A stretch of 64,000 nt of DNA from a virus (IMGVR_UViG_3300032233_002826:54532-118531); one strand, 5' to 3'. Counted from the stretch's first letter, positions 5,356-44,310 are shown. The notes: a model not told the origin generated them from the sequence alone. Numbers and translations are program-made.

Positions 5356-5403
5356 CCTAGGATAAATGCTAACTACACAAACAAGGTTAGCATCTATCCT
5401 AGG
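5356..5403. repeat. 18-bp inverted repeat built from motif B
   Basis: cctaggataaatgctaac-N12-gttagcatctatcctagg, one mismatch. Confidence 0.9.
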
Positions 5404-5428
5404 GGTTCTGGCGGGAGCAATAGGAAGC

Positions 5429-5516
5429 CCCCTAGCGGCCTTTCAACCGCTAGGGGGTCAACACTGCGTCGAGTTGTGCAAGCCACCCCTACGGCCCTTG
5501 TGCGGGCCGTAGGGGG
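5429..5516 (-). terminator. Two GC-rich hairpins after the first DUF932 gene
   Basis: cccctagcgg..ccgctagggg and cccctacggccc..gggccgtagggg. Confidence 0.6.
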
Positions 5517-5527
5517 TTGCCTATCTG

Positions 5528-6469
5528 CTAGGCACTCATGCTCAACGCGAGGTCGAGCGCCTTGCGGTTGTCGTTCGCCCCCGTGCCGAACCACAGACTC
5601 CCCATGCGGTTATCGGCCGTGCGACCCCGCGAGTAGTTGAGATACTCGTTGTAGGCGTTGTACGCCGCCCACCACGTTCCCGACACTCCGGGCATCGACT
5701 GGAGCGTGCCGTCCATCCGGCCGACGATATCCGCGATGATATTCGTCGTGCGGGTGGGCAGGTCGGTATCGACCGTACCCTCCACCCCCAGCAGCGTTTT
5801 GACATACCGCCGAACGTCCGCCACGTTGATGCCCCGCGAGGCGAGGAGCCGATACTGGTCGGCAGTAGCCTCGAACTCCGCATTGGCGGTGTTCACGACC
5901 TCGCGGATACGGTCGAGGTTGAGAGACAGCCGCCGGGTATGACGCACCCGCAGCAGTTTCGACGCCGTGGCACAGTGGGCAGCGGCGAGGGTGTTCGCGC
6001 AGACCACGCGGATCGGGGTGAAACCCACCCGTACCGCCGTCGTGCCGTCGTGGCTGTTCGACAGCAGCAGAAACTTGGCGACCTCGTCGCCCGGCACGAC
6101 CTCCGCCCGATTCCGGTTCAACTCCGCCAGCACCCAGACCTTTGCACCGCAGTGCAAGGCACCGGCCGTATGGAGGTTGACCTCGCCAGCGTCGATGAAC
6201 GGCTGGAACCAGTCGAACGCCGCACTGTTCTGGAGCGGTTGGTAGCGGGGTCCGACGACCCCCAGCACACTACCATCGCTCTCGCGGATCGTAGCACGGG
6301 CAGGTACGGCCTTGCCGGTCGCCGTGAACAGGTCGCACAGACCAACGCTCCAGTCGAGGCCGGAGGCGACAATCGCCTCGCCAATCGTCGGTGCCGACTC
6401 CAGCCGATTGCCCAGCCCGTGCCACGGGGTTTCTTTGACGTAGAACATGGTTTCGACAGCGTGAGCCAT
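5528..6469 (-). CDS. DUF932-family phage/plasmid protein, copy 1
   Basis: PWHGLG, LLLSNSHDGT and TPIRVVCANTL motifs; start moved to MAHAVETM after GGAG. Confidence 0.85.
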   Translation of the reverse strand: MAHAVETMFYVKETPWHGLGNRLESAPTIGEAIVASGLDWSVGLCDLFTATGKAVPARATIRESDGSVLGVVGPRYQPLQNSAAFDWFQPFIDAGEVNLHTAGALHCGAKVWVLAELNRNRAEVVPGDEVAKFLLLSNSHDGTTAVRVGFTPIRVVCANTLAAAHCATASKLLRVRHTRRLSLNLDRIREVVNTANAEFEATADQYRLLASRGINVADVRRYVKTLLGVEGTVDTDLPTRTTNIIADIVGRMDGTLQSMPGVSGTWWAAYNAYNEYLNYSRGRTADNRMGSLWFGTGANDNRKALDLALSMSA

Positions 6470-6576
6470 GATGACAAACTCCAGAGAGAAACAAGGGGAC
6501 GCGAGCCGCACGGCCCGCCGAAACTATTACATTCTACATGGGATTTTATTTCGGCTTTTTTTCGCGTTTTTTTTGG

Positions 6577-6603
6577 AAAACAAAACCCCGTGTAGAATGT
6601 AAT
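6577..6603 (+). promoter_or_regulatory. Only plus-strand copy of motif A seen
   Basis: aaaacaaaaccccgtgtagaatgtaat, back to back with the copy at 6529. Confidence 0.7.
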
Positions 6604-6730
6604 AGCGTTGGGCAGGAAGCCCAGAGCGTAGAAGGTGCGCACCCATCCTTGGCCTTAGCCCCCGGCCCACTGGATAAATGCTAACTAAACCGTTGAAAAA
6701 ACCTCTGGATAAATGCTAACCAAACCGTTG

Positions 6731-7421
6731 AAAATAGTGATATTTTTAATTTACAAGTTTTATTATATCTGCTACCCCTTTGGCCCCATTGCCAGAAGGG
6801 GGTTGATTTTTGTGTTAGGGACTAAAGATCCCAGTGACAGCCCAACCAATTTCGGTAGAACCGGGCATTACCGGCATAATCACATTCTGTCCCGTACCGC
6901 ATGGCTAGGTAAGGAAAATTGCACCGCAGGCCCGCAAGACTTACGGCAAAATCATTCTTGCCGATACGAAACGAGAAAAACACAGGAAACAAGATTCGGT
7001 TGGGCTTGGCGAGGATTGATTCCTGACGGGCGATATCGTTGGACTTTGACTCCACAATCCTGCTCTTGTGGTACTCTGTGAACCCAACCGCGAGGATACC
7101 GGACTTGATTCGCTCGATCATGCTCTTCTGTTGCTCGATTTGCTTGCGAGCCTCACAATGACTCGTCGTGAACGGGTTGGCGAAACGGACGCTCGCGATG
7201 ATGGCCTTGAACATAATTGACTCCAAGAAAGTGAGAAAAAAATACCAATGGCTTAAAATTCTACATGGGATTTTATTTTTTTATGGAATCAAGTTAGATA
7301 ATAAGTTGTTGGATAAATGCTAACCAAACTGGGCTGAAAAATAGTGATATTTTTAATTTACAAGTTTTATTATATCTGCTACCCCTTTGGCCCCATTGCC
7401 AGAAGGGGGTTGATTTTTGTG
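6731..7421. repeat. Identical 84-bp intergenic block at 6731-6814 and 7338-7421
   Basis: Direct comparison; contains AT tract, terminator-like hairpin and TTTGTG. Confidence 0.9.
6822..7214 (-). CDS. Hypothetical protein
   Basis: ORF after motif A with GGAG RBS; likely start MFKAII. Confidence 0.55.
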   Translation of the reverse strand: MFKAIIASVRFANPFTTSHCEARKQIEQQKSMIERIKSGILAVGFTEYHKSRIVESKSNDIARQESILAKPNRILFPVFFSFRIGKNDFAVSLAGLRCNFPYLAMRYGTECDYAGNARFYRNWLGCHWDL

Positions 7422-7679
7422 CTAATCCTGAAAGCCACAAGGCGGGGTGGCTTTTTTGAGTTCTGGGTGCTTCCTTTCCATGTCTGCCAGCAGGGTTTTG
7501 GCCGTCCGGCCCACATATCCCAATCTCTTGGCGCAGGCCACGGCGCTGACCCTACTCGCCTTCAGACCAGTATTGGCCTGAAGTTTGAGAGCATGATAGA
7601 GCAAAACAAGCCTGTAGAGGGCGATACCATCCTCGCCCGTAATAGACATGGAGCCGTTCTCGTGAACTTCGACAGGCAT
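7422..7679 (-). CDS. Hypothetical protein
   Basis: ORF after motif A with GGAGG RBS. Confidence 0.7.
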   Translation of the reverse strand: MPVEVHENGSMSITGEDGIALYRLVLLYHALKLQANTGLKASRVSAVACAKRLGYVGRTAKTLLADMERKHPELKKATPPCGFQD

Positions 7680-7873
7680 TTCAACTATCCTCCGGGGGTG
7701 AAAGATCTATATGCCTAACATTCTACATGGGATTTTATTTTTTATTGGCTGCAAGTTGTTGGATAAATGCTAACCAAACTGGGTTAGAAAATAGTGATAT
7801 TTTTAATTTTCTAACTTTTTTATATATTCGTTAGCCTTCCGGCCCTATTGCCGGAAGGGTTTTTATTTTGTGT

Positions 7874-8119
7874 TTAGAATGGTTTTGGTGGATATTCTTT
7901 CCATTGTCCGTCTGGGTGTTGGAACCAGTGTTTGCCAGTTGAAACATCGTAGGCTAGATTGACTGTGGCGTACATGAATCGTTTGGCTTCGCTTTCGTTG
8001 GCCTGTCTGGTGTTGGTTTGTTGGTATTGCTGTTTGATATTGGAGAGTTCTTTGGTTCCGTTCATAGCGAGTCCTAGGATGGTGAGAGCGACTCCGATCC
8101 ATTGCAGGACGATTGGCAT
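7874..8119 (-). CDS. Small protein with N-terminal membrane/signal segment
   Basis: Hydrophobic N-terminus, AGGA RBS. Confidence 0.6.
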   Translation of the reverse strand: MPIVLQWIGVALTILGLAMNGTKELSNIKQQYQQTNTRQANESEAKRFMYATVNLAYDVSTGKHWFQHPDGQWKEYPPKPF

Positions 8120-8292
8120 GGGAAGTTTCCTTTACTTTAGGATGGTTAGGAAGATTTCGATAAAATCGTGAATCATTCGAGAGTATTTGGTATCACAACC
8201 CAAATCCTGCCCGATTTTTATTAATACCAATGCTTGTAGGATTCCGTTCCAGTTTCTGAAAATCTTTTTCATTGTTGTATCCTCCGGTGCAT

Positions 8293-8321
8293 ATAGTATC
8301 GGCATTGTCAAGGGGGTGCAA
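8293..8321 (-). promoter_or_regulatory. Sigma70-like promoter
   Basis: TTGCAC-N17-TACTAT upstream of GGAGG and ATG. Confidence 0.5.
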
Positions 8322-8649
8322 TAAAAAAAAGTTTGTAGTGTTTTATCTTGCCTATTTTGACAGAATCCTATGGATAAATGCTAACTTATGGCATTAAATA
8401 CTATTATCTTGGCTTTTTTTTAGCCAAGATAATAGATTTTGGGTTTTTCTTGACGTTACTTCTTTTCTTTCACAAACTTCTCGACCAATCTGTTGTATTC
8501 CGGGAGATGCCCCAGTTCTTTGAGCATCTCCAGTGCAAGAATCAACTTGCAGTGTAGCATGTTCACTTCGCCCGTTGGCTCTGCTACAACCGCACGCTTC
8601 TCAAACTTCCATTCGGTAGTCATGGGATGGTCGCCTTTCGTTGTTAGAC

Positions 8650-8880
8650 TTACTTCGCAATCTTCACAAGATTTCTTGCATCGGCCAGGCTGTATTCGCC
8701 GCTGATGAGTGCATTATCGGTTCCAAAAGTGCCGTGGAGACTCACGCAGTAACCGCCCTTGAGTTCCACAAGGTCGATCAAGTTAATTAAGGTGAAAGTG
8801 TCGTGAGCGGTTCCGACAGGACAATCACCCGTAAGAGTGGCTTCCCACTTGCCACCGATAGCGTAAACCTTGATTTTCAT
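8650..8880 (-). CDS. Hypothetical protein
   Basis: ORF directly after motif A at 8905. Confidence 0.65.
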   Translation of the reverse strand: MKIKVYAIGGKWEATLTGDCPVGTAHDTFTLINLIDLVELKGGYCVSLHGTFGTDNALISGEYSLADARNLVKIAK

Positions 8881-9012
8881 ATTGCATCCCTTTCTATCTC
8901 TATAACATTCTACACGGGATTTTATTTTTTATTGGCTTGCTGGATAAATGCTAACTTATATTAAATGCCATTATCTTGGCTGTTTAGCCAAGATAATGGG
9001 TTGTGGGTTGTT

Positions 9013-9234
9013 TTATTCGCCTCCGTAATCATCAGCCAAGGGGGTATCATCACCAAAATACCCATAATCTTCATCTGTGCCGAATCCTGCGCTGGTCATT
9101 GCAGAATCGAAGTCTCCGTCCATGTCATCGTTCCACTCTTCGTCATAGCAACTTTCGATTTCGTGAAAGTCGTTATAGTCATCGTAGTTATAGTCATCTA
9201 CGTTGGTTGCATCGACATCATCAGCGTAACTCAT
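9013..9234 (-). CDS. Very acidic small protein
   Basis: 73 aa, D/E-rich with no Lys or Arg; after motif A, AAGGA RBS. Confidence 0.7.
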   Translation of the reverse strand: MSYADDVDATNVDDYNYDDYNDFHEIESCYDEEWNDDMDGDFDSAMTSAGFGTDEDYGYFGDDTPLADDYGGE

Positions 9235-9298
9235 GTCACTTTCCTTGTTTAAGAGTTATCGTCCTTGATCTTATAACATTCTACAATGGATTTTATTT

Positions 9299-9547
9299 TC
9301 AATTATCAGTTGGAAAACTATCGTAGATTTGCCCTTCATCGACCCAACTTTCATTTGGGGTTGGCGTGAGAGTCACAATGTCCTTATCGTCACTATCGAA
9401 TCTGATTCGGTACATGGCACAACGATACAGATTGCCGGGAATAGTATCAACAACCACGCCAGACAACAGACGGCTCTCAGTAATGTCCACAAGTCCGTTC
9501 CAAAGTCTTTTTGCCACCCGGACACGGTCACCATTTTCGCATTTCAT
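9299..9547 (-). CDS. Hypothetical protein
   Basis: ORF with AGGTG RBS. Confidence 0.6.
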   Translation of the reverse strand: MKCENGDRVRVAKRLWNGLVDITESRLLSGVVVDTIPGNLYRCAMYRIRFDSDDKDIVTLTPTPNESWVDEGQIYDSFPTDN

Positions 9548-9565
9548 TTTTCACCTTTCTTTCAA

Positions 9566-9638
9566 TGCGTCCCCAGGGAATCGAACCCTGAACCTAGAGG
9601 TTAAAAGCCCCTTGCTCTGCCAATTGAGCTAGAGACGC
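9566..9638 (-). tRNA. trnK: tRNA-Lys(TTT)
   Basis: Cloverleaf; anticodon loop CTTTTAA; GTTCGATTC T-loop. Confidence 0.92.
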
Positions 9639-9679
9639 TCGTAAATCTATAACATTCTACACGGGATTTTATTTTTTCT

Positions 9680-9874
9680 TCAAATCTTGGAAATCCTGTC
9701 TAAATCATAAACGACCAGACTTTGCTTTCCGTTTGGGGTATCATATTCCACGGTCACGGTCTTTTCCGAAACGTACAGAATCGTAGCCTGCACATACGGT
9801 TCAGTATCGTCGTGAACTTGAACCCAGTAAGGCAACAGAACCGAAACCTTTTCACCGACTTCCACTTCAAACAT
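9680..9874 (-). CDS. Hypothetical protein
   Basis: ORF after motif A at 9911; likely start MFEVEV. Confidence 0.6.
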   Translation of the reverse strand: MFEVEVGEKVSVLLPYWVQVHDDTEPYVQATILYVSEKTVTVEYDTPNGKQSLVVYDLDRISKI

Positions 9875-10112
9875 CGTTTTCCCTTTCGTCTTACAGGCTT
9901 CCACAACATAACATTCTACACGGGATTTTATTTTTTATGGGGCTTGTTGTTGGATAAATGCTAACCTAGAAAAAAAATGAAAAAAAATATTTTTGGAAAG
10001 TTCTATTAGTACGGGGGTCAAATAATAATAAGATATTATTGCAATAATATTTGTGCAAAATAAACCCCCTAGGCAATCTTTCGACTACCTAGGGGGCGTT
10101 GGTTGCTCGCTA

Positions 10113-11054
10113 CTAGGCGCTCATGCTCAAAGCCAGTTCAAGAGCCTTGCGATTATCGGCGGCGCCAGTTCCAAACCACAGGCTATTCATCCTGTTGTCG
10201 GAGTTGCGTCCGCGAGTGTAGTTCAAGTATTCGTTGAACCCGTTGTACGCAGACCACCAAGTTCCCTTGACTCCCGGCAGGGATTGCCGTGGCCCCTCAA
10301 TCGTGGCAAGAACTTCTTCGATGATGTTCTTGGTACGAGTAGGCATATCGGCATCACTGACGTTCTCAACGTCGAGAAGAATCTTGACGTATCGACGCAC
10401 ATCGGCCTGATTGAAATCCTTGCTAGCAAGGTAGCGATACTGATCGGCAGTAGCCTCAAAATCAGCATTTGCCGCGTTCATAATGTCCCGTACCTTTTCA
10501 AGATTGCTGGCAATCTTTCGGGTGTGACGAACCCGAAGAAACTTGCTGGCAGTAGAACAGTGGGCAGCGGCCAACGTATTGGCACATACAACCCGAATCG
10601 GCGTGAAGCCCGGTCGAACGGCAGTAGTTCCATCGTGCGAGTTGCTGAGAAGAATGAACTTCCTCACATCGTCCCCCGGAACAATCACGCTAGGGTCGCG
10701 ATTCAACTCTGCCAAAACCCATATCTTCCTGCCCTCATCAAGAGAACCGGCAGTATGAAGTCGAGCCTCACCACTATCCACAAACGGCTGGAACCAGTCC
10801 AGTGCATCGGCATTCTGGAGCGGTTGGTATCGCGGGCCAACAACGCCAAGAATGCTGCCGTCACTTTCACGAACCGTGGCACGATGACCAACTCTCACAC
10901 CGTCCGCCGTGAACAAGTCGCGGAGCGCCACAGTCCAATCAAGTCCTGCCGCCACGATTGCTTCACGAATCGTAGGAGACTCATTCAATGCCACGCCAAG
11001 GCCATGCCAAGGAGTCTCGCCAACGTAGAACATCTTTTCGACCATATGGGCCAT
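10113..11054 (-). CDS. DUF932-family protein, copy 2
   Basis: Close paralog of 5528..6469 with the same motifs. Confidence 0.85.
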   Translation of the reverse strand: MAHMVEKMFYVGETPWHGLGVALNESPTIREAIVAAGLDWTVALRDLFTADGVRVGHRATVRESDGSILGVVGPRYQPLQNADALDWFQPFVDSGEARLHTAGSLDEGRKIWVLAELNRDPSVIVPGDDVRKFILLSNSHDGTTAVRPGFTPIRVVCANTLAAAHCSTASKFLRVRHTRKIASNLEKVRDIMNAANADFEATADQYRYLASKDFNQADVRRYVKILLDVENVSDADMPTRTKNIIEEVLATIEGPRQSLPGVKGTWWSAYNGFNEYLNYTRGRNSDNRMNSLWFGTGAADNRKALELALSMSA

Positions 11055-11239
11055 GATGAAAAACTCCAAGAGAAAAACACAAGCCACAGTGGCTTGCCTT
11101 AGTCATTACATTCTACATCGACTTTTGTTTTCCAACTTTTTCGGCTCAAACCTTAGGATAAATGCTAACTCAAAGGGAGTAATAAAAACTCCTCCCGCCT
11201 TGAACGGGAGGAGTCTCTACGATTCGATTCCTGCTATCA

Positions 11240-11452
11240 CTAACTGCGGAAGTTTCGACCATTTTCCATGATATGGGCAACCGCTGCCCACGACCATTGA
11301 AAGGCCATACCATTTTCAATGTCGAGACAGGCCACCGTGGCATGACGCTCCTTCCAGCCGATGATCTTCGCGGGCATATCATCAAGCGTACACAAGTTGT
11401 CATCCCGCCACTTTGCCGCTGGACTGTCGTATCCATTTTCAAAACTGTTCAT
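11240..11452 (-). CDS. Hypothetical protein
   Basis: AGGAG RBS before MNSFENG. Confidence 0.6.
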   Translation of the reverse strand: MNSFENGYDSPAAKWRDDNLCTLDDMPAKIIGWKERHATVACLDIENGMAFQWSWAAVAHIMENGRNFRS

Positions 11453-11472
11453 CGCATTTCTCCTTGAAAAGA

Positions 11473-12203: not shown

Positions 12204-12227
12204 AGTTTAGTTGGATTCTATCATCTA

Positions 12228-12449: not shown

Positions 12450-12656
12450 GACAACTCCGAGTGAGTGAAAGAAACGGCAACCGAACCGAACCCTATAACA
12501 TTCTACATGGGATTTTATTTTTCTAATCCCCCGAGCCTTGTTGGATAAATACTAACTATTTTATTTTATTTTTATGATATTTTTATTTTATGATATTTTA
12601 TTATTATTTTACCCTTCCGGCCCTATTGCCGGAAGGGTATTATATTTTGTGCAAAC

Positions 12657-13686: not shown

Positions 13687-13812
13687 GGCCTTTCTCCTTA
13701 TCCCTATAACATTCTACATAGGATTTTATTTTTTATGGGGCTTGTTGTTGGATAAATGCTAACCTTGTATTTATGGCCCTATCCACTCTTTTGGAGTGGG
13801 TAGGGCTTCCTT

Positions 13813-14379: not shown

Positions 14380-14606
14380 ATTAGTCCCTTTCTATCCTAG
14401 TAACATTCTACACGGGATTTTATTTTTTAGGCCGCATCATCGGCCCACATTTCTATAACATTCTACATGGGATTTTATTTTTTATGGGGTCGTGTTGCTG
14501 GATAAATGCTAACCTTATTTTAAAAATAATCCTTATTTTATTTTATCATTTTATTATTATTTTTAGTTTGCTATAGGGTTTTTGTTATTTAGTATTTTAT
14601 TTTGTG

Positions 14607-14903
14607 CTAAAGAGTTTGGCTTTTTTTCCAACTCTCCATAAAACTTTGAATATTTTTTGATCCAATGGGATTAGCAGAATGAATAAAATACTTAGGAGGC
14701 TCGTACCCTTTCTCAAAAGCGATTTCAAATAGTTGTTTGAGAAAGACCATGCTTGTATCGTCGCCTCCTAAATCATGGTCAAAACTGATTATATCGGGCA
14801 TACCGTTGGCATTTACCCAATCTATTGCTTCTTTTGATGATCTAACTACGATCCAATCATTAGAAGGTGGAGTCCTAATATCATCTATAAACACTTTGTT
14901 CAT
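14607..14903 (-). CDS. Cyclic-phosphate-processing receiver-like domain protein
   Basis: FIDDIRTPP, ISFDHDLG and IHSANPIG motifs. Confidence 0.65.
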   Translation of the reverse strand: MNKVFIDDIRTPPSNDWIVVRSSKEAIDWVNANGMPDIISFDHDLGGDDTSMVFLKQLFEIAFEKGYEPPKYFIHSANPIGSKNIQSFMESWKKSQTL

Positions 14904-16412: not shown

Positions 16413-16642
16413 TACGGTTGGTTATTCCGCTACCTTTACGTCCACCATGCTCTGGCAAGACATGGCTAAGGACGAGTTTGTACGGGCGGGTGGGTTCGCT
16501 TTGGATTGTCATTGGGTATCCTACTACCCTCGATCTGGAGCTTGACCACCTACTTCACTGCCCGGCTTTCCATCGTAGGAGACAGTCAGCCATTGAGGAG
16601 CCGCTCACTGCGGCCTAGCAGCCCGTTTTGTTTCGACAATCC
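16413..16642 (-). ncRNA. Unassigned structured ncRNA, copy 1 (core 16482-16642)
   Basis: Begins right after motif A at 16647; helices covary with copy 2. Confidence 0.75.
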
Positions 16643-17129
16643 TATGACATTCTACATAGGATTTTATTTTTTGTCTAGGGAAGGACTCTGCCTTTCAGCG
16701 GAGTCCTTCCCTGTTGCCGCCACAAATCACGCCTAATCTAGTCCCTCAGCATGGACCCACGGATGTTTGTGTGGGAGTCACATCTTTATTATCCCACATC
16801 CCCTCTAAAATATAAATGCAATGCACAAGTTTATTTCACCTTGCGAGGGTTTCGCCGCCAGCGTCCCGGCGGGTTATTGTTAGGGACGGATGGATTCGTT
16901 TTAGGTTGTCAACAGTGTGCTATCACCTCGACCCACCACTTGACCATCTACTTCACTGCCCGCCTCCCCATCATAGCAGACGGTTTGGCATTGAGGAGTT
17001 GCTCATGCAACCTAGCAGTCCCTTTGTTTCGACAATCCTATGACATTCTACATAGGATTTTATTTTTTGTCTAGGGAAGGACTCTGCCTTTCAGCGGAGT
17101 CCTTCCCTGTTGCCGCCACAAATCACGCC
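16627..17129. repeat. Identical 107-bp direct repeat at 16627-16733 and 17023-17129
   Basis: Contains terminator-like hairpin, motif A and the 5' end of the ncRNA. Confidence 0.92.
16741..17038 (-). ncRNA. Unassigned structured ncRNA, copy 2 (core 16882-17038)
   Basis: Begins right after motif A at 17043; helices covary with copy 1. Confidence 0.75.
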
Positions 17130-17326: not shown

Positions 17327-17567
17327 TTTAAGTCTCCCATGATTAGGACAACCAGTGTTGCCCATGCTTCTATAACATTCTACATGGGATTTTATTTTTC
17401 TGCCCTGTCGATTTTTTTGGCTATTGGATAAAGGCTAACTCTGACTAGAGTTCCAAGTTATTGGATAAAGGCTAACTGGCTATTTATTTTTATTTTATTA
17501 GAAAATATGTAGAAAAAGAAGGTTTATTAATTGGTAATGGCTCCTAATTAATATTTGTGCAGATTGA

Positions 17568-20031: not shown

Positions 20032-20202
20032 TATCTCACCCTTGATAGTGTTGAAATTCAACCCAACACCATAACATTCTACGCAGGGTTTTGTTTTCAG
20101 TTCTTGGATAAATGCTAACCAGTCAGCAAAACCCGATATTATTTTAATTTATCAAAAATAATATTATAAAATAAATCGGGAAGTTTTTCTAAAATTAGTT
20201 AT

Positions 20203-20862
20203 TTAATTTTGTGCAGATAAACTTTGAATATATAACTTAGCATGATTGCTATAGTATTTGCTATAATCTTCTATAGATTTCATTAGCACTTTGTTATGGA
20301 ATTCTTCTTTGCCCTTTTCATCAAGGATTTCCATGTATTGCTTAATGTAAATAGAATCAGACAAGCAATGTTCTAACTTTTCATATCTGCCTTTGATTAC
20401 ATATTTGGCATACTTGAAAACATATTCATTATTGAAATAATAATTCCGCCCATTTTTGAGAAGGGTGCGTTCGATCTGCCTTTCTCCTTTGATGAATCTG
20501 TCCTTCAGGACATAACGAGCGTACAGATAAGAGTCTCGAAAACTTTTAGCAATTGTTTTCTCCGCATCTTCCCACGGAGACTTCATAACGTATCGAGCAT
20601 AACCATAAGCACTATTGCTTTCAACGATCAAAGGCTCTGCTTCTTTCCATCTATTTTTCATTACGTTTTTGGCATAAAGATAAGCGTAGTATGGAGATTG
20701 AACGATCAAATGTTCGCCCTTCCTCCAGCGACCACAAAGAATCTTACGCGAATACTCATAGCCCTTGGCCGCTGCGTACCATTCCCAACCACAGTTCAGC
20801 AAAATGTTTTCAAATTGCTTATCTTTTTTATTAATCCAATGACGAATATTGAGACTAATCAT
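20203..20862 (-). CDS. Helical-repeat protein of the LPExxHN family
   Basis: Repeats YAxxVxKxRWxxAExxI; EEFHNKVL. Confidence 0.75.
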   Translation of the reverse strand: MISLNIRHWINKKDKQFENILLNCGWEWYAAAKGYEYSRKILCGRWRKGEHLIVQSPYYAYLYAKNVMKNRWKEAEPLIVESNSAYGYARYVMKSPWEDAEKTIAKSFRDSYLYARYVLKDRFIKGERQIERTLLKNGRNYYFNNEYVFKYAKYVIKGRYEKLEHCLSDSIYIKQYMEILDEKGKEEFHNKVLMKSIEDYSKYYSNHAKLYIQSLSAQN

Positions 20863-20864
20863 TA

Positions 20865-21053
20865 TCAGCCCTCCCAATCATTGAAATAAATATCGTAGTT
20901 GCCTACATCATCCCAATCATCGTAGCAGTCTTCAATATCATCGTAATCTTCAAAGTCTTCGAAATCTGTATCTTCGAAGTATTCACAAATGTCTACATCC
21001 TGATCAACGTAAGGAAACAAGACGCCTTCTTGCATTTCATCAAAATAATCCAT
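20865..21053 (-). CDS. Very acidic small protein
   Basis: 62 aa, D/E/Y/F-rich with no Lys or Arg; motif A and AGGAG upstream. Confidence 0.65.
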   Translation of the reverse strand: MDYFDEMQEGVLFPYVDQDVDICEYFEDTDFEDFEDYDDIEDCYDDWDDVGNYDIYFNDWEG

Positions 21054-24237: not shown

Positions 24238-24384
24238 GATATTTCTCCTAGCAACATAACATTCTACACGGGATTTTATTCTTGGGATGGGATAAATGCT
24301 AACCTATAAATAAAAATTTTTATATTATTTTTAATATTATCAATTTTTTATAGTAATTAATAAAATTTATGAAGATGATTTATA

Positions 24385-24711
24385 TCAATTTGAATTTGTG
24401 CTGCCGTAATTAATTTCAGCCTTTTCAAGATCAAGTTCGCTAATCTTAGCATTCATTTCTAATTCTTCAATATCTTTTGTAGCAACAACTCCATTCATAT
24501 GTTTTATTTTATTTAATCTGTTTTTATAATAATCACGAATTATGACGGCTTTTTCATATTCGATTTGCTCTACTGTCCTATAATGAGGAACAGGCACAGC
24601 AGGCATAGGAAGTGGAACTGGTATTGGATTTGGCCTTTCAATCCACGTTGGCATTTTCATTATACATGCCAAATTTAATAAAATAAATAGTGATAAAACA
24701 ATTCTACGCAT
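24385..24711 (-). CDS. Putative membrane-anchored protein
   Basis: Hydrophobic N-terminus and Pro-rich linker. Confidence 0.55.
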   Translation of the reverse strand: MRRIVLSLFILLNLACIMKMPTWIERPNPIPVPLPMPAVPVPHYRTVEQIEYEKAVIIRDYYKNRLNKIKHMNGVVATKDIEELEMNAKISELDLEKAEINYGSTNSN

Positions 24712-27442: not shown

Positions 27443-27514
27443 ATGATGACATAACATTCTACATTATTTTTTATTTTATAGTCTTGGATAAATGCTAACC
27501 TTCTGTGTGAAATA

Positions 27515-31153: not shown

Positions 31154-31686
31154 ATCTGTATAACATTCTATATTATTTTTTATTTTATAGCAAGGATAAA
31201 TGCTAACCTTGAGATAATTTTTAAATTATCTCATAATTTTATAGAAATTAATAAATTATCATAAATTAATTTATGATAATTTAATTTTGTGCATCATAGT
31301 TCTTTTGATGTTCTAAGAATTTATTATTTGTTATATTATTGAATAGTGCCTTTGCTAAATCGTCTAGATTTTTATAGACACCTTCTTCCCAATGATATTC
31401 TGTTCCTACCTTTTTGGGCTTTAGATTATAATTGTCAGCCCATTTTCTGATTTCAGTCCATTTGAACAATGTCATTTGTTCAAATACTCTTGAAGGTCTT
31501 TGGCAAATAACTTGGCATCTTCTTCATTCATGAATTGAATTTTAACTATAGTATTATCTGCCATTACCTGTCGGCACTTACCTCGCGCCTGAATGTCCTC
31601 CTCCAGTTTGGCATCATCATCAAGAATAGTCATGCCCATAAGCCACAACAGACAATTAAAGAAAAAAATACGCATATAACACTCCT

Positions 31687-33869: not shown

Positions 33870-34154
33870 AGATTCGTAATTCATCTAACTACAAAACATT
33901 CTAACTTATTTTTTATTTTCTTGGGTTCATGAAAAATTTGATCGCCCTTAATTTTTAATATACTATTTTTTAATTCAACAATAATTTCATCGGCCTTAAC
34001 AACACATTCGCCATCCTTGTAAACCCTAATCATTTCCATGATTTTTCCTCTGGATAAATACTAACCCAAGCCAATTATTATAACAAATTGATAAGATAAT
34101 ATCAAATTTTAAAAAGAATAAAGATAAATTATAAATTATTTTTAATTTGTGCAG

Positions 34155-37294: not shown

Positions 37295-37474
37295 TCATCG
37301 TCCAGCCTCTCCTGTCTTGAACCCCGCAAGAAACGCCGCCTCAAGGGCTTCCTTGACTTGCCATACGCTCATTTCCTTGAAGTCCAGACTATCGCTGTTG
37401 CGTGTCTGTAGCGTTTCCAATCCAAGAATGTTCTTGGCAATTTCTTCAACGATTGTATCTGGATGTTTGCTCAT
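37295..37474 (-). CDS. DUF6900-like small protein (59 aa, not in ORF track)
   Basis: LETLQTRNSDSLDF..VWQVKEALEAAF. Confidence 0.65.
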   Translation of the reverse strand: MSKHPDTIVEEIAKNILGLETLQTRNSDSLDFKEMSVWQVKEALEAAFLAGFKTGEAGR

Positions 37475-37609
37475 GATTGAATGACATTCTATATTATTTA
37501 TTATTTAAATATGCTGGATAGATGCTAACCCATATGATTTTTATTTAAATGCCCAACCCCTCGCCCCATGACTTTCATCACAAGGCGAGGGGGAACAGCG
37601 GGCTTTATA

Positions 37610-38695
37610 TTACATTTGGATCGCCTTAGTCATACGATCACCATGCTTCTTGAACCACTTCTTTCCATTGTCACAAGTAAACACGCTCTGCTTCAACGTG
37701 TCGTTATCACTGTGCATCACTCGACGCATGAACAGGATGCTAGGCTCACCGCTCATGTTGAGCAAAGCACCGAAGCAGTTCTCAATCTGCTTCTTGACTT
37801 CCTTGCTACGAAGCATGTGCGTAGCCAGAGCATTACTGACAGCATAACTAACAGTAATGTTCTTCTCGTCCTCCTTCCACTCAATCTTGCCAGAAAGAAT
37901 ATCCTCAATCTTCGGGATATTCTCACACACCGTCTGGTATGCCATGAACTCGTTAGCCGCCGCGCCCACAACAGAGCGAATATCACAAAGTTCATTCTGA
38001 CCAGCATGGAGTCGCTGACTAACGTAGTACCACGAACGCGGAGAAGGATTGGACGATTCCTCGTCAACACTCGACTGGATCAACAGGTCAGGCTTGAAAC
38101 TAATGAACCCGATAACGTGCGGGTGAACATTGTTCTTTACCGCCCAGTTGCTCCAAGTGTTATGGTCTGGAACGTAGTGGTAGATAGCAAAACGCTGGCG
38201 AAGGGCAGACGAGAGAGGATAAACATGGGCCTTATCATCACTCTTATTGCCAGCGGCAACGATGTACCAACCATCACCCAACTTATGACTGCCAATCTTG
38301 CGGTCGAGAACCAACTGGAGAGCCGGATTCTGAACGCTGGGAGCAGCGGTGTTGATTTCGTCAAGAAACAAAATCCCCTTGCCATCAGCAGGAATGAATT
38401 CAGGACGAACCCACTGAACATGAGTCGGATTCTTCTTATCATCCTTCATAATCACAGGCAGACCACGAAGGTCAATCGAATCAAGACTGTTGAGGCGAAG
38501 GTCAATCATCATTTCGCCATTGTCAAAATCAACAGCCTGCATCACCTGTTCGCTCTTGCCCACGCCGGGACTACCGTAAATAAGCATCGGAAGCCCCTGC
38601 CGACCACGACTCAGTTCAACCGAACGACAACGCTTGATATGATTCACAAGCGAACCCGTCACCACGTTACCAGTATTCATCAACTTGTCAGCCAT
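37610..38695 (-). CDS. MoxR-like AAA+ ATPase
   Basis: GSPGVGKS, LFLDEIN, AAGN and ALRQRF motifs. Confidence 0.88.
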   Translation of the reverse strand: MADKLMNTGNVVTGSLVNHIKRCRSVELSRGRQGLPMLIYGSPGVGKSEQVMQAVDFDNGEMMIDLRLNSLDSIDLRGLPVIMKDDKKNPTHVQWVRPEFIPADGKGILFLDEINTAAPSVQNPALQLVLDRKIGSHKLGDGWYIVAAGNKSDDKAHVYPLSSALRQRFAIYHYVPDHNTWSNWAVKNNVHPHVIGFISFKPDLLIQSSVDEESSNPSPRSWYYVSQRLHAGQNELCDIRSVVGAAANEFMAYQTVCENIPKIEDILSGKIEWKEDEKNITVSYAVSNALATHMLRSKEVKKQIENCFGALLNMSGEPSILFMRRVMHSDNDTLKQSVFTCDNGKKWFKKHGDRMTKAIQM

Positions 38696-38762
38696 TAGAA
38701 ACTCCTTTGTTAGTTAGATACCCGCTGTTCATACACTTATCATTCTATATTTATTTTTATTT

Positions 38763-39101
38763 TCAAGCACCAAGACTTTTGACATACTTGAAATATTCAT
38801 CAACCCAACGCCTATCCTGTTCGTCAAGATTATCCAGATTCTTTGCAATCATAAAATTATTAAGATGCTCTGGAGGATTCTTCTCGACAAAAACACAATA
38901 AAGATAACAACACTTCAAATCTTTATGAAATACAAGTTCGTCAGATTCATCCCAACGCTTTCTGCGAATATACTTAGCATAAAGATAAGCAAACTTAGGA
39001 TCAGAAAGAAAAACTCTTTCGTCTTTTATAGGCTTGCCCGCCAAGGCATTGGCCCATATCTGTTTCAAGTCAACCGTTTTCTTAGCCATCTGTTCCTCCA
39101 T
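38763..39101 (-). CDS. LPExxHN-family protein
   Basis: AYLYAKYIRRKRW..PPEHLNNFMIA. Confidence 0.7.
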   Translation of the reverse strand: MEEQMAKKTVDLKQIWANALAGKPIKDERVFLSDPKFAYLYAKYIRRKRWDESDELVFHKDLKCCYLYCVFVEKNPPEHLNNFMIAKNLDNLDEQDRRWVDEYFKYVKSLGA

Positions 39102-39133
39102 GTAACTCTAACATTCTATATTTAATTTTATTT

Positions 39134-40420
39134 TCAATCTTCTTCGTAAGGAACATTGACTTGAACAGTTTCACCAAACGGCGGCTTTACGTCGCTAGTC
39201 ATTACCCAAAGAACGGGCAAGTTAGGATCATCGCCAAACTCACCATATCCATCAGTAAAGAAAACAACATAATCCGGCTTGATTCGATTTTCAAAAATAT
39301 GATCGAACACTGGTCGGAAATCTGTGCCACCACCACCATTCAACACGGGAAGCGGTTGATGTGGACTAATCCAGCCCGAACTGTGAACGCCAGCATCACA
39401 ATCCAAAACATAAACTTTGGCATTGAAACGCTTGCGAATATCTTCAAGTTCACTCATGGCTTGTTCCAAATCCCGCTGGCTCATGCTGCCAGAAGTATCA
39501 ACAGCATAACAAATCTTTGGACTATCCGGCCCAATGTTACTTGGCAAAATATAATCTCGACCAAGGAAACGCTTGTTAGGAATACTCCAAGTAACATCAC
39601 GCTTCTCTAATCGACTGCAACCAAATCGAAGTTTCTGCCGTAAAGCACGAAGCCAATCAACCTTGGGCTTGAGAATCTTGGCAATAGCCCGCTCAAAATC
39701 AGCAGGTAACTTGCCCTGACTCTTGGCAACAGCAAAAGCCTCTGTAAATGCACGGGTAATGTGATCCTTCAAATCACCAGAAATCTGCTCCTTAGTTTTC
39801 CCTTCCTTCTCAGGCAACGGCACACGCCGAGGCCGAACCACAATGGTATCGCCATCACCTTCGCCCTCACCCTCATTCTCTTTACCCTCGCCATCCTCAC
39901 CCTCACCATAACTAAGATCAAGAATAATCTTCTTGGACTTTACATTCTGAAACTTAGGGTCTTGACGAAGAAGTTCATAAATAGCCTCTGCCGTCAACTC
40001 CTTATACTTCTCGTCCAAACAACCACCCTCAATAAAATAATCATCATTCTTTTCAAACTGATAGTGAAGAAGAAGATTAATCGCAAAGTCACAGGCGACG
40101 TTGAACAACAACGGGTCACGATCCTCCAAACGCACACAATGTTCAAAAACAAAGTGGCTAATCTCATGACTCAAAAGAAATAACAACTTCTTATGATACT
40201 TGTCTTGATACTTTTCCTTCAAACCCTGACAAAAATCAGCGTTGAACGTAATGTTGCCAAACGCATCCATACAAGCAGTAGGAATCTTAGTCGTTGTCAA
40301 ATTAAAACTGCAACGCTCCGCAAGAACACCCCAAAACGGAAAGTCAATGCTGAACTTACAAAGAATAGTATCCAAATCATCCTTGAAACTGCGAACCTGA
40401 TCGTCTGTAGGCTTAGTCAT
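39134..40420 (-). CDS. Metallopeptidase-like plus VWA domain protein (DUF2201-type partner of the AAA+ ATPase)
   Basis: HEISH, VDTSGSM, GGGGTDF and FTDG motifs. Confidence 0.85.
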   Translation of the reverse strand: MTKPTDDQVRSFKDDLDTILCKFSIDFPFWGVLAERCSFNLTTTKIPTACMDAFGNITFNADFCQGLKEKYQDKYHKKLLFLLSHEISHFVFEHCVRLEDRDPLLFNVACDFAINLLLHYQFEKNDDYFIEGGCLDEKYKELTAEAIYELLRQDPKFQNVKSKKIILDLSYGEGEDGEGKENEGEGEGDGDTIVVRPRRVPLPEKEGKTKEQISGDLKDHITRAFTEAFAVAKSQGKLPADFERAIAKILKPKVDWLRALRQKLRFGCSRLEKRDVTWSIPNKRFLGRDYILPSNIGPDSPKICYAVDTSGSMSQRDLEQAMSELEDIRKRFNAKVYVLDCDAGVHSSGWISPHQPLPVLNGGGGTDFRPVFDHIFENRIKPDYVVFFTDGYGEFGDDPNLPVLWVMTSDVKPPFGETVQVNVPYEED

Positions 40421-40475
40421 AATCTGTCTCCTTACTGACATAACATTCTATGTAGGATTTTATTTTTCTCACCAG

Positions 40476-40862
40476 TTATTCTTTAAAATAACGCTTCTTC
40501 TGAAAATAACCGTCGTAATTTATCGCTTCTTCTACCCATATTTTTCTTAAATAAATATTGTCGCTGTGATCCAACCCCAAAACAGCAACAGTATATTCAT
40601 AACTTCCAACTTCACAAAGTTCTACTTCTACAATATTTCCACCAATTGTGCAACTATTTTTATTAAATACCTTCCTCAAATCTATCTCGTAATCCCAGTT
40701 ACGACCATTGCACTCACCCCAAGAAAATACCTCAATATTAAATTCATCGCTAATATAATTAATAAATTCATCCTCTGTTATTATACCATATTCCTTCACT
40801 TCTTTCAAAGATAAATATTTAATTATTATCGAACCATCATTATATTTAATTTTAACGACCAT
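40476..40862 (-). CDS. Hypothetical protein
   Basis: 128-aa ORF overlapping the upstream stop. Confidence 0.55.
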   Translation of the reverse strand: MVVKIKYNDGSIIIKYLSLKEVKEYGIITEDEFINYISDEFNIEVFSWGECNGRNWDYEIDLRKVFNKNSCTIGGNIVEVELCEVGSYEYTVAVLGLDHSDNIYLRKIWVEEAINYDGYFQKKRYFKE

Positions 40863-41544
40863 TCTTCAATTCACACAGTAAGTCGCCAATACTCTTTGAA
40901 GTATCCAACTCGTATACCTTAGCATAATGACTCACAAGACGATGTAAATTTTTTCGCTGAACTTTAATAAATTCAAAATACTCTTTAGGGCCACCCTCTG
41001 TGGAACTATAATAATCCAATTTATCCATTTTATAAACACCATATCCACGATGAATAGACTTAACACTATCGTCCATACTAGCCCCATACATATAATTATG
41101 AAGAGACTCAGGAAGCCTACCCTCTAAAACACCCCAAGCATATTCAAAACATTCATAAGGATCACCAATTAATTTAGACTCTAAATGCTCTGGAAGTCTT
41201 CCCCTAATAACATCCTTGGCATAAGTAACTAGTCCTTCTGTTGTTTTAATACAATCCTCGTACTCTGGAAGCGGCCCTCTAACAACATTGGTCAAATAAT
41301 CCAATGCCAAATCCGTACTAAAATTCATAATGAAATCTTCGTACTCTTTAGGTAACCTACTCCCAATTCGTCGAGCATACTCAACACAATCATGCGCATC
41401 CTTTAGAAATACACGCTCAATGTTAACAGGCAACCTAGACCAACCATATCGCTTCATCCAACTCTTCGCACGCTCTGTAGTCCTAAACTTAGGAACCCGA
41501 GAAGACCAAAAAGAAGCATCATATGATCTAATCGTAGTAAGCAT
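40852..41544 (-). CDS. LPExxHN-family repeat protein
   Basis: Repeated GRLPE units; LPESLHNYM. Confidence 0.75.
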   Translation of the reverse strand: MLTTIRSYDASFWSSRVPKFRTTERAKSWMKRYGWSRLPVNIERVFLKDAHDCVEYARRIGSRLPKEYEDFIMNFSTDLALDYLTNVVRGPLPEYEDCIKTTEGLVTYAKDVIRGRLPEHLESKLIGDPYECFEYAWGVLEGRLPESLHNYMYGASMDDSVKSIHRGYGVYKMDKLDYYSSTEGGPKEYFEFIKVQRKNLHRLVSHYAKVYELDTSKSIGDLLCELKNGR

Positions 41545-41993
41545 TTGTTTTTCTCCTACTACAATAACATTCTATATTAATTAATATTTTATAATATATT
41601 AATTTTAGGACACTCTATGCTGCCCTCCTTAATAATAGCATCACTTCTTATTATTAATTTATTGTCTTTAATAAATATCAACGCTATTAATTTACCATCA
41701 ATGTCTTCTAATTTTAAACTACGATTATTAATTTCTACTATATTAATTTTTTCATCTCTAAACATATACCCCTCCATAGGATACATACTAACCCTATCAC
41801 TTATTATTTTATCAAGATTTTTATTAATTTTAATTGTTATTAAATATAACAATTATTAATGAAAATATTTGTGCCAAGGATAATTAATAATTAATATAAA
41901 ATAAAGCATCTGGACTAATAATAAAATGCAATATAATAAAAACAGCACTTACAGTATTAACTCATTATTTAATATTAATATAATTTGTGCAAG

Positions 41994-42131
41994 TTACTTA
42001 GCAGTAATCTTGCTATAGACAACAAGCGTAGCCTTGAACCTAGAAATGCCACCAAGTTTCTTGATGGTGTCTCTAAGCAAAACTAAGTCCATCAAACCAA
42101 TCGCTTTCATCTTCGACTTAACCTTAGCCAT
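41994..42131 (-). CDS. 45-aa basic protein (not in ORF track)
   Basis: AAGGAG RBS; MAKVKSKMK..IKKLGGISRF resembles the C-terminal helices of 42224..42715. Confidence 0.5.
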   Translation of the reverse strand: MAKVKSKMKAIGLMDLVLLRDTIKKLGGISRFKATLVVYSKITAK

Positions 42132-42223
42132 GATGTTCTCCTTGTTTAATAAATCGAGGGGCTGAAATAAATTTTATAAGGCGGATTAATAAAATTTACC
42201 CAGCCCCCCGAATGTACCTAGTT

Positions 42224-42715
42224 TCACTCGTTGTCCGAATCCTCGTCATCCGAATCTTCCTCATCCTCGTCCTCGTCATCATCATCAGACTCCGACTCCG
42301 ACGATTCTGATTCCGAAGATTCCGACATGGTAACATCAGACTTCGAAGAATAAGCCTTCAAAACTGCTTCCAGACGCTCCACGCTGCCAAGACCAGCGAT
42401 CAAACCACAAACGTCCTCAACAACAGTCAAGAAAACATCCGGCTCCTCAAATTTCTCAATAACAGCCTGAACCGTATTCAGTTCAGCCGCCGTTACCTCG
42501 CCCTGCGGTGCTGCCGACTTCTTACGAGCCGGACGATCACCACTGAACGCCTTCGCACGAACGCCCGCTACAAGCGCCTGCGAAACATCAACACCCTTAG
42601 AACCCAACGCCTCCATCACTTCCGTTGTAGAAGCCTCAGGATGCGAATTCAAATAATCACGAATTGCAGCGCTCTTATTAACGCCACTAGAACCCTTGGG
42701 ACGACCCGCTGGCAT
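42224..42715 (-). CDS. Putative DNA-binding protein with AT-hook-like motif, HTH-like domain and acidic tail
   Basis: GRPKGS, NKSAAIRDYL..GVDVSQALV, S/E/D tail; AGGAGG RBS. Confidence 0.7.
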   Translation of the reverse strand: MPAGRPKGSSGVNKSAAIRDYLNSHPEASTTEVMEALGSKGVDVSQALVAGVRAKAFSGDRPARKKSAAPQGEVTAAELNTVQAVIEKFEEPDVFLTVVEDVCGLIAGLGSVERLEAVLKAYSSKSDVTMSESSESESSESESDDDDEDEDEEDSDDEDSDNE

Positions 42716-42906
42716 AATTAGCCTCCTTGTAAAAAAATTAATCAAACCTTGCCTTAATTTTAGAACTTTTTTTTGATTTGTAAAGTCCAACCCAAAAAAA
42801 ATTCCACAACACCTAAAAATTCTATATTAATTTTTATTTTCTACCGCACTCAACAAACTTATCCATAAAATAAAAATTATCCTACTCAAAAAACCACTAA
42901 AAAATA

Positions 42907-43554
42907 TCATAAATTCTCCAAATACTCCTTAATAGTTTTACTCCCATCTACCAAACTAAGACGATTCTTCAAAACATAATCGTCCTTCTTACGCTGCTTA
43001 AAATATATCCTAGACCACCGCTCGCCACCCATGTTATTTGCTATCATAAAATTATGAACCACATCAGGCAAATAACACATATTACGATAAAAATAATAAC
43101 TCATTTCAGAACTGCCCAACAAAACATCAATAAATTCAAGTTTCTTTTCTGCTAAATATTTAATATAATCGAAACTCTTGCAGCCCTGATCTAACCCCTC
43201 CAACTTACCACGAACAACATACTTGCTATACTTATAGCCAACCTTAGAACTACGCCAATTCTTCCAAATAACTGCAAACGCCCTCTTCTCAACCTCAAAT
43301 GGCAATCGACCCTTCAATACATTCCTACAATAAATATAAACCAAATCACAACCACTAGTACCACGCCAATTACATATTTTCTCAATATTATTATAAAAAT
43401 ACTCAACGTCCTTCAAACCACCACCAGACTTGAAATGATCCCGCAATAAACTAAACTCTTTGGCTTTATTCCAGTCATTAGGACCATAATTAATGAGCAC
43501 ATCCAAAACCTCACGCTCATTATCCAAATACACAACCACTTTTCGCTTAGGCAT
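42907..43554 (-). CDS. LPExxHN-family protein
   Basis: VLKGRLP; LPDVVHNFMIA. Confidence 0.7.
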   Translation of the reverse strand: MPKRKVVVYLDNEREVLDVLINYGPNDWNKAKEFSLLRDHFKSGGGLKDVEYFYNNIEKICNWRGTSGCDLVYIYCRNVLKGRLPFEVEKRAFAVIWKNWRSSKVGYKYSKYVVRGKLEGLDQGCKSFDYIKYLAEKKLEFIDVLLGSSEMSYYFYRNMCYLPDVVHNFMIANNMGGERWSRIYFKQRKKDDYVLKNRLSLVDGSKTIKEYLENL

Positions 43555-43863
43555 AATTCGTCCTCCGTAACTACCTAACAATCTATATAAAATTATATTT
43601 ACCAGTGATGAATAATATTCGCTATAACACAAGCACATGTTAAAAAATTAATAAATATTATTAGCAATTTTAATAAAAATGCAGCCCAAGCCTCGTCCTG
43701 AGTCAATATAGGCAAATCCGGCGTGTCTTCATCACTCCTGCCTATCCTATAATCTATCGCACGACATATTACCAACAATGTACGATTCATAGGATATATG
43801 CTAACTCCCTTTTTATTAAATATAATGCCGATTTTTGTCATTAATTATTATAAATCACCAAAA

Positions 43864-44310
43864 CTATCGCTTTTGTGCTATAAAATAATTATAATATTCG
43901 TCACTCCACCAAACTAATACTTCCTCATCCTGCTTTATATCCTTTAAAGCATAGAAAATCATTAGTTTTTCATCAGTATACGTCTTAAACGCAGCATTAG
44001 AAAGATTTTGTGCATCAGAACTATTATAAATTCCACCAAATCCTAATGGAATTAAAAATTTGCGACCGTGAACCGTCCATTCATCACTAACTTCATCATC
44101 ACCAGGATAAGCATACTGATATATTACTGGATCTTTATGATAATTTTCCCTAAATCCTAATAGCATACAATGACAATACTCTATTACATCACCACTTTTT
44201 ATATTTGTGCCAGCAAATACTCCCATTCCACGCTGACCACTATTCTTTATATATAAATTATTGCTGTAACCAGCCTCTTTATACTTGTGCCACTCTTTTA
44301 TTATGTCCAT
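43864..44310 (-). CDS. SET-domain protein (putative lysine methyltransferase)
   Basis: RGMGVFA..IKSGDVI, IYNSS and ALKDIKQDEEV motifs. Confidence 0.75.
   Translation of the reverse strand: MDIIKEWHKYKEAGYSNNLYIKNSGQRGMGVFAGTNIKSGDVIEYCHCMLLGFRENYHKDPVIYQYAYPGDDEVSDEWTVHGRKFLIPLGFGGIYNSSDAQNLSNAAFKTYTDEKLMIFYALKDIKQDEEVLVWWSDEYYNYFIAQKR

Follow-up and report, generated by a model that had tools for sequence, protein, structure and literature searches.

A lineage-specific 14-mer that very probably controls accessory transcription units, and may form a second promoter class, in a huge uncultured phage

The contig IMGVR_UViG_3300032233_002826 belongs to the genome of a huge uncultured phage, and its positions 54532-118531, a stretch of 64,000 nucleotides that forms the right-hand 64 kb of this single 118,531-bp virus contig and is here called the window, carry an array of closely similar copies of a 14-nucleotide sequence, motif B, placed before genes and pointing almost without exception in one direction. 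Motif B and its surroundings are very probably a control element for transcription in the sense of the genes. On whether motif B is specifically the core of a second class of promoter, one that lacks a -35 box, its sequence leaves the judgement evenly divided; the complete proposal, in which such a promoter core heads accessory units within composite cassettes resembling the promoter-early stem-loop (PeSL) elements of T4-type phages, is held with slightly more than even confidence. All positions below are counted within the window.

Motif B reads GGATAAATGCTAAC on the plus strand and GTTAGCATTTATCC on the minus strand, the strand of the genes, where it is preceded by a purine (R-GTTAGCATTTATCC). 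With up to two mismatches allowed, the window holds 24 matches, against 0.79 expected from dinucleotide shuffles, the largest of which gave 4. The plus strand carries 22 of them, between 5360 and 43805; the reverse matches are one at 5386, which pairs with 5360 to form a 17-bp palindrome, and one at 14805 (two mismatches), which is probably due to chance. At the same threshold, no copy occurs elsewhere in the whole contig. An earlier description of this DNA (the sequence-only reading) had counted about 22 copies, all but one co-oriented, crowded at first, then kilobases apart and absent past 43.8 kb, and it holds in each respect: neighbouring copies lie 35-1390 bp apart as far as 14.5 kb and 2.0-4.3 kb apart beyond, the closest being the tandem pairs 6672/6707 and 17426/17463, with 35-37 bp between copies. 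The occupied domain is a GC-enriched stretch (0.36-0.50) of a contig that is otherwise about 0.30 GC. Relaxing the threshold yields 5 matches on each strand at three mismatches, and 43 versus 39 at four; since the strands are then balanced, the family has a sharp limit, with no tail of degenerate copies. The motif contains approximately 27 bits across 15 positions; on the gene strand, T3, A4 and T8 are invariant (22/22), and variation is found only at positions 6, 7 and 9. Positions 3-8, TAGCAT, are followed by six conserved bases, TTATCC, after which conservation ends, save that the next base is A in 16 of the 22 copies and that a weak preference (A-R-N-R) extends along the downstream side. 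On the upstream side there is neither a conserved -35 nor any other box at a fixed distance, no position exceeding 0.5 bit except the purine at -1. The missing tail and the unconserved flanks together argue that selection acts on the exact 14-mer, and that the array is not the product of recent duplication.

The setting of the copies is that of transcription punctuation. All 15 tRNAs lie on the minus strand, as do all open reading frames (ORFs) with a family hit, namely those for a helicase, an ATPase, an HNH endonuclease, rIIA, a phosphoesterase, DUF6915 and two DUF932 paralogues, and the motif B domain itself holds tRNAs, structured RNAs, the two DUF932 genes and many orphan genes. Twenty of the 22 copies of motif B are intergenic, and the remaining two are ambiguities in the choice of start codon; in gene sense, the next gene or tRNA starts 12-255 nt downstream of every copy, and a hairpin or a gene end usually lies upstream. 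Motif B is also coupled to another motif, motif A (AAAATAAAA-N7-TAGAATGTTA), whose 61 copies in the window all run in gene sense, in many cases across the stop codon upstream, and which appears to serve the leftward gene block as its general promoter. In 14 of the 22 cases, TAGAAT, the -10 of motif A, lies 37-61 nt from the start of motif B, or 23-47 nt from its end. It is the combination of minus-strand genes, intergenic placement, coupling to motif A and a spacing gradient that amounts to a gradient in the size of transcription units that argues for a role in transcription; a relative, described below, shows the same gradient with an ordinary promoter motif.

Several features make motif B a candidate promoter core in its own right. 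It fits a TAnnnT hexamer, with T3, A4 and T8 at -12, -11 and -7 and the variable positions 6, 7 and 9 at -9, -8 and -6, and the 6 nt from the hexamer to the end of the motif equal the canonical distance from a -10 to a start site. TAGCAT would accordingly be the -10 hexamer, TTATCC the discriminator, and the A that follows the start site. The core of motif A (TAGAAT-GTTAT) is akin to motif B. Furthermore, three units, at 34052, 41779 and 43792, have motif B without motif A, and in them a ribosome-binding site (RBS) and ATG follow within 1-15 nt of the end of motif B; transcription must therefore start at or before that end, and here motif B cannot be an activator site for a promoter further downstream. 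The reader of such a promoter might be a phage-encoded sigma factor, or the host polymerase modified by the phage. Two other assignments failed: a canonical sigma-70 promoter, since the -35 expected 16-18 bp upstream is absent, and TTAGCA of motif B as a -35 for TAAAAT in motif A, for which the spacing suits only five units, with a degenerate hexamer in those. Canonical sigma-70 promoter-like sites are likewise not enriched (49 found, 41.8 expected), and a conserved -35 is absent from both motifs, some copies of motif A having a TTGACA-like -35 at 17 bp.

The sequence-only reading had also reported, in 13 cases, a TTTGTG(C) lying beyond motif B across an AT-rich spacer, and this second box is firmly established. 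On the gene strand it reads GCACAAA. TTTGTG begins 80-106 nt past the start of motif B on the plus strand in 13 of 22 copies, compared with 1.3 % of AT-matched random positions (binomial P about 1e-19), and the distances from motif B to TGTG given earlier were reproduced exactly; within 240 nt, it accompanies 15 of 22 copies of motif B and only 4 of 45 promoters that have motif A alone (Fisher P = 1e-6). Across the contig, TTTGTGC has a strand bias of 20 : 2. One pairing needed correction, as the degenerate motif B proposed at 41878 has four mismatches; a better copy, with two, lies at 41779 and is paired with the TTTGTGC at 41868. TTTGTGC was said to persist within the ends of ORFs, which is the case at the two checked, 20203 and 24385. 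There it falls in different frames and hence is a nucleotide-level signal, not a set of conserved C-terminal codons. A sigma-54 element was rejected as well, the GG being present in 1 of 14.

In gene sense, the order of a cassette is the end of the upstream unit, GCACAAA, the AT-rich tract, motif B, and then either motif A or an RBS with start codon. Thirteen copies form long cassettes of this type, in which the preceding unit ends at GCACAAA or no more than about 16 nt from it: in five a stop codon is fused to the box as TAG/TAA-CACAAA, in one the box follows tRNA-Ser and in another an intrinsic terminator. GCACAAA is a real signal at gene ends, and it may mark the end of the preceding unit, whether stop codon or tRNA end. 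The tract between the boxes spans 72-98 nt and contains a hairpin in about half of the long cassettes (a convincing one in only about 5 of the 13). Its 40 bp next to motif B are 82-92 % A+T, and from -48 to -7 before the motif the GC content is 8-18 %; the 40-50 bp of nearly pure A/T directly upstream of motif B could act like an UP element or as curved DNA, and phasing of A-tracts near 10 bp is weak (z = 3.2 at 10 bp, 1.6 at 10.5 bp). Apart from one near-identical family (6707, 7311, 7761 and 12543), the members of which flank unrelated genes, the interiors of long cassettes cannot be aligned above shuffled controls, so that what is conserved is the two boxes, the AT-richness and the length. 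The remaining nine copies are of a short type without an AT tract, motif B standing 12-27 nt after a hairpin or as the second of a tandem pair. Gene end, hairpin or AT tract, motif B, motif A, RBS and ATG would together make up a composite terminator-promoter cassette of the PeSL kind. The individual elements are as follows.

5360-43878, minus strand: motif B domain, holding all copies, GC 0.36-0.50
5356-5403, no strand assigned: inverted motif B pair (5360-5373, 5386-5399; 12 nt between the two copies), placed where the leftward gene block ends in an abrupt change of GC
6672-6685, minus strand: motif B, tandem partner of 6707 (35 bp apart)
6707-6814, minus strand: long cassette with motif B, AT tract and GC hairpin, (A)CACAAA directly after a TAA stop
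7311-7422, minus strand: long cassette with motif B, AT tract and hairpin, GCACAAA; motif A 61 nt 3' of the motif B start
7761-7872, minus strand: long cassette; motif A at +49
8372-8385, minus strand: short type, motif B 15 nt past a 14-bp hairpin, without motif A
8942-8955, minus strand: short type, motif B 12 nt past a hairpin; motif A at +43
9952-10056, minus strand: long cassette, GCACAAA after the intrinsic terminator 10064-10097; motif A at +47
11156-11169, minus strand: short type, motif B after a hairpin and T-run; A-like promoter at +54, then a DUF932 gene
12543-12652, minus strand: long cassette with a 12-bp GC hairpin; motif A at +51
13750-13763, minus strand: short type, motif B after a hairpin; motif A at +47
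14500-14607, minus strand: long cassette, TAG stop fused to CACAAA; motif A at +48
17426-17560, minus strand: tandem motif B (17426 and 17463, 37 bp apart), AT tract, GCACAAA; motif A at +57 from the proximal copy
20106-20214, minus strand: long cassette, GCACAAA overlapping the end of ORF 20203-20877; motif A at +38, then the gene for a 507-aa phosphoesterase
24290-24401, minus strand: long cassette, GCACAAA inside the end of ORF 24385-24711; motif A at +37
27486-27499, minus strand: motif B; motif A at +38, then tRNA-Ile
31194-31292, minus strand: long cassette with two AT-only hairpins; motif A at +37
34052-34152, minus strand: long cassette with motif B only, GCACAAA directly after tRNA-Ser; AGAGGA RBS, ATG of a 52-aa ORF 12 nt past motif B
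37516-37529, minus strand: short type, motif B after a GC hairpin; motif A at +38
41779-41874, minus strand: long cassette with motif B only (two mismatches); GGAGG RBS and ATG within 13 nt; second GCACAAA at 41984
43792-43878, minus strand: long cassette with motif B only (one mismatch); ATG 1 nt past motif B, choice of start codon ambiguous
6531-61936, minus strand: motif A, 61 copies in the window, 14 with motif B 37-61 nt upstream

The phage itself has no cultured relative, as judged from a megablast search of GenBank phages that returned no match and from tblastn with RIIA, the best hits of which were T4-like phages at 30-33 % identity. The contig, 23 % complete by CheckV and part of a genome of roughly 500 kb, encodes rIIA/rIIB-like, baseplate (wedge) and tape-measure genes, a protein with a ParB C-terminal domain and, within the motif B domain, an HNH endonuclease (39134-40441), most of its large ORFs belonging to no family. 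Relatives by RIIA are uncultured, on contigs of 125-459 kb, and protein searches also brought up RIIA relatives at 96 %, from a 119.7-kb contig, and at 70 % and 60 %, from public run assemblies. The two chosen for comparison, G002 (458 kb, 91 % complete) and G001 (177 kb), have RIIA proteins 45-47 % identical and encode three and two sigma-70-family proteins, respectively, two of the three in G002 having only region 2 recognizable. A 13-bp motif, TGATACCAACTAG, is present in both, with 68 copies in G002 and 16 in G001 that are all co-oriented, fused to stop codons and placed 11-35 nt ahead of start codons. In G002, these copies span 94 kb, a region in part homologous to 9-33 kb of the window; their spacing falls from kilobases to approximately 300 bp, while GC climbs to 0.59 at the downstream end of the block and then drops to 0.33, so that the polarity, the spacing gradient and the GC gradient are those seen here. 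The lineage is the same, and both arrays run with the genes, fuse to stop codons and grow denser towards a GC-rich downstream end; the relatives differ in lacking a second motif, an AT tract and GCACAAA. Aligned on TAGAA, TGATACCAACTAG corresponds to motif A (10/14 positions) and not to motif B, and motif B is absent, at background only, from G002, G001 and five more distant relatives, and is therefore lineage-specific. Wider searches for the motifs gave nothing to extend this: exact motif B in IMG/VR produced only single chance matches; the combined pattern of motifs B and A in IMG/VR and JGI metagenomes produced four, all chance and two of them inside unrelated coding sequence; and the long form of motif A found five unrelated contigs in IMG/VR. 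As probes for relatives, the helicase led to one distant locus, and an RIIA profile run against GTDB genome contigs to one distant match in a metagenome-assembled genome of the Pseudobdellovibrionaceae, from which no host is inferred.

A number of further observations concern the motifs and their neighbourhood. Motif A varies with local composition in its upstream half, which is AAAATAAAATCCCRTG within the GC-rich 6.5-25 kb and AAAATAAAAATWAATA further right, a division that matches the two sub-classes of the sequence-only reading. At 16638-16663 and 17034-17059, copies of motif A sit in the loop of a perfect 9-bp hairpin (AATCCTATG / TAGAATGT / CATAGGATT) and head duplicated structured-RNA units. 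The DUF932 paralogues (5528-6511 and 10113-11087, minus strand; E = 4e-44 and 4e-49) share 67 % DNA identity over 1 kb; one is preceded by motif B and an A-like promoter, the other by motif A with tandem motif B further upstream. The DUF932 gene at 10113-11087 has a hairpin with T-run (11079-11097) ahead of its start codon and behind its promoter, an attenuator-like arrangement that resembles units of G002. There, at 340001-360000, a GC hairpin of 10-15 bp directly follows TGATACCAACTAG, its first bases lying within the motif (CTAG...CTAG), and is itself succeeded by a T-run, an RBS and ATG; dozens of such hairpin units occur about 300 bp apart in DNA of 55-59 % GC, in a genome of about 36 % GC. 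Along the window, GC rises from 0.29 to 0.41-0.50 at about 5.3 kb and falls to 0.31 by 44 kb. Just past the boundaries of the motif B domain lie, on one side, an ankyrin-like 317-aa ORF (4151-5104) and, on the other, a gene on the minus strand for a 162-aa SET-domain protein (43864-44352; Pfam E = 4e-9). The similarity between two small ORFs behind units with motif B only is not significant, and they do not stand as paralogues.

Against motif B as a promoter core stand several findings: the lack of a conserved -35 or fixed upstream box, already described; a C at -9, which is poor for host sigma-70; the lack of any sigma factor or RNA polymerase gene among those found in the 23 % fragment (a T7-type polymerase model matched nothing, including in all 14 control genomes, and is uninformative for this contig); the failure of the relatives, IMG/VR and JGI metagenome searches to find a relative with motif B; the T-runs of several hairpins beside GCACAAA, which lie on the plus strand and not on the gene strand, so that these hairpins are not classical terminators for the genes; and GCACAAA itself, whose role a promoter leaves without explanation. 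Moreover, distances from motif B to motif A cluster at 37-38 and 47-49 (Rayleigh P about 0.035), which would suit an activator site too. This leads to the foremost rival, still a rather unlikely one, in which a sequence-specific protein of phage or host uses motif B as its operator or activator site, tuning motif A and insulating units from one another. A 14-mer of about 27 bits without a degenerate tail resembles a factor site more closely than it does a typical sigma-70 promoter; in five units, the linkers of which are unrelated, motif B starts 37-38 nt before TAGAAT and is centred near -43, with further units near +10 and +20 from that spacing; and the tandem copies 35-37 bp apart and the inverted pair also fit. 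Nonetheless, the three units with motif B only leave no room for another promoter before the RBS, the phasing is broken by distances of 43, 51 and 54, linkers in the 47-49 group are homologous and therefore do not count as independent evidence, the 37-38 cluster corresponds to the closest packing of the two motifs, and no DNA-binding protein was recognized in the fragment.

The other rivals act on DNA or on the opposite strand. The sequence-only reading had taken the pair of boxes for a DNA-level site whose spacer can bend or melt, perhaps involved in the entry of the genome by steps, in its anchoring or segregation, or in looping. Its polar two-box element with AT-rich spacer stands; its entry, anchoring and segregation roles, read on the non-coding strand, are improbable, and a protein-bound two-box site keeps some probability. 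Conservation of both boxes around a spacer of 72-98 nt that varies freely in sequence, polar orientation, confinement of the copies to one domain, an encoded ParB C-terminal domain protein and weakly phased A-tracts are all compatible with it. Yet the element sits strictly at gene starts in gene sense and coupled to motif A, which favours a transcription role; nine copies have neither second box nor AT tract; in the relative, an ordinary promoter motif shows the gradient too; copies are densest where the block ends downstream, whereas a T7-like entry array would have the reverse; and the steps of one helical turn are not supported, the box-to-box distance showing no significant 10.5-bp periodicity (Rayleigh P = 0.17), which also speaks against a DNA-looping two-operator system. 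A little less improbable, though still doubtful, is that motif B and GCACAAA are the ends of a protein-organized unit (a polar insulator or roadblock standing before each transcription unit), or a promoter and unwinding element for R-loop priming. In the insulator version, a phage protein may bind the 14-mer directionally and hold or wrap the approximately 90-bp AT tract up to GCACAAA, and the inverted pair at 5356-5403 may close the domain; either version, if true, would constitute a chromatin-like punctuation private to a huge phage rather than a plain promoter. Marginally below the DNA-level site in probability comes a rightward promoter, in which plus-strand motif B, containing GATAAAT, starts a short AT-rich RNA that ends at a hairpin and T-run (TTTTGTGC) and would be either antisense or an R-loop primer like that of a T4 origin (promoter plus unwinding element). 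The hairpins at 7835, 8401 and 12610 are followed by plus-strand T-runs, two of which end in TTTTGTG, and in those cassettes the gene strand is A-rich after the hairpin; such T-runs beside GCACAAA give a short rightward transcript its small probability. However, motif B has no TAnnnT hexamer on the plus strand, convincing hairpins are as few as noted above, the putative RNAs share neither sequence nor structure, the weak extra conservation (A-R-N-R) lies on the gene-sense downstream side, and no plus-strand genes are supported. Least probable of all is that motif B has no direct part in transcription and is either a strand-specific nick site, such as occur in T5-, phiKMV- and tf-type phages, or a mere patch of homology for cassette recombination. 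Copies on one strand, an HNH endonuclease gene in the domain and a near-identical cassette family between unrelated genes agree with this; but nothing would keep a nick site out of coding DNA or at a set place before start codons, and 14 bp is too short for homologous exchange, most cassettes sharing nothing else.

No description of the motif strings was found by searching the literature, in keeping with the sequence-only reading, which did not recognize the element as a described one. By analogy, the closest described system would be the PeSL and promoter-middle stem-loop (PmSL) cassettes of T4-type phages (RB49/phi1, PST/T4, nt-1/KVP40), a PeSL consisting of a stop codon in an AT-rich region, promoter, stem-loop, RBS and ATG, and being concentrated in hyperplastic regions (PMC2839356, PMC4122927). 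The cassettes described here are likewise intergenic composites of about 100-200 bp, with the preceding gene's stop codon in AT-rich DNA, a stem-loop, a promoter, an RBS and a start codon, concentrated among small accessory genes in a phage that has rIIA/rIIB-like and baseplate-wedge genes, and they include near-identical copies flanking unrelated genes. They differ in that the promoters are not sigma-70 consensus -35/-10 pairs and that two conserved boxes in series (B then A) and the gene-end GCACAAA, absent from PeSLs, are present; as to gene exchange of the PeSL type, only duplication of cassettes within the genome was seen. T4 late promoters (TATAAATA, gp55) lack a -35 and are read by a phage sigma factor, and motif B resembles them as a compact, contiguous -10-region motif, without a -35 and very uniform within one phage. 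Unlike them, it is 14-15 bp long with a conserved discriminator, it precedes genes of an early or accessory block and not those for virion proteins, and the fragment yielded neither a gp55-like nor a sigma gene. In T4, the MotA box (TGCTT at -30) upstream of the -10 defines a second temporal class, and an extra box upstream of a -10 in an rII-carrying phage is shared here; motif B was nevertheless rejected as a MotA box, as it lies 23-47 nt from the -10 of motif A instead of 11-13 and also occurs with no -10 downstream. A DnaA box was rejected too: its consensus is TTATCCACA, to which TTATCCA-A-C of motif B with its flank conforms at 7 of 9 positions, with conservation extending 7 nt further upstream than needed. 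A Bacteroidota TAnnTTTG on the plus strand fitted 2 of 4 copies checked, and integron core sites did not fit.

How huge phages schedule their hundreds of small accessory genes is almost unknown, and this fragment displays two nested promoter-like signals, motif A running across the whole early block and the very exact motif B confined to its GC-richer accessory domain, where it would head independently controlled units. The polarity and spacing gradient of the array stem from gene orientation and unit size rather than from a DNA-transport device. The cassettes are ready-made parts for tests of phage promoters, and they may mark sites of gene exchange. Should motif B be read by a separate sigma factor or regulator, it would define a separately timed regulon and provide a short tag by which that regulon and its regulator could be found in relatives.

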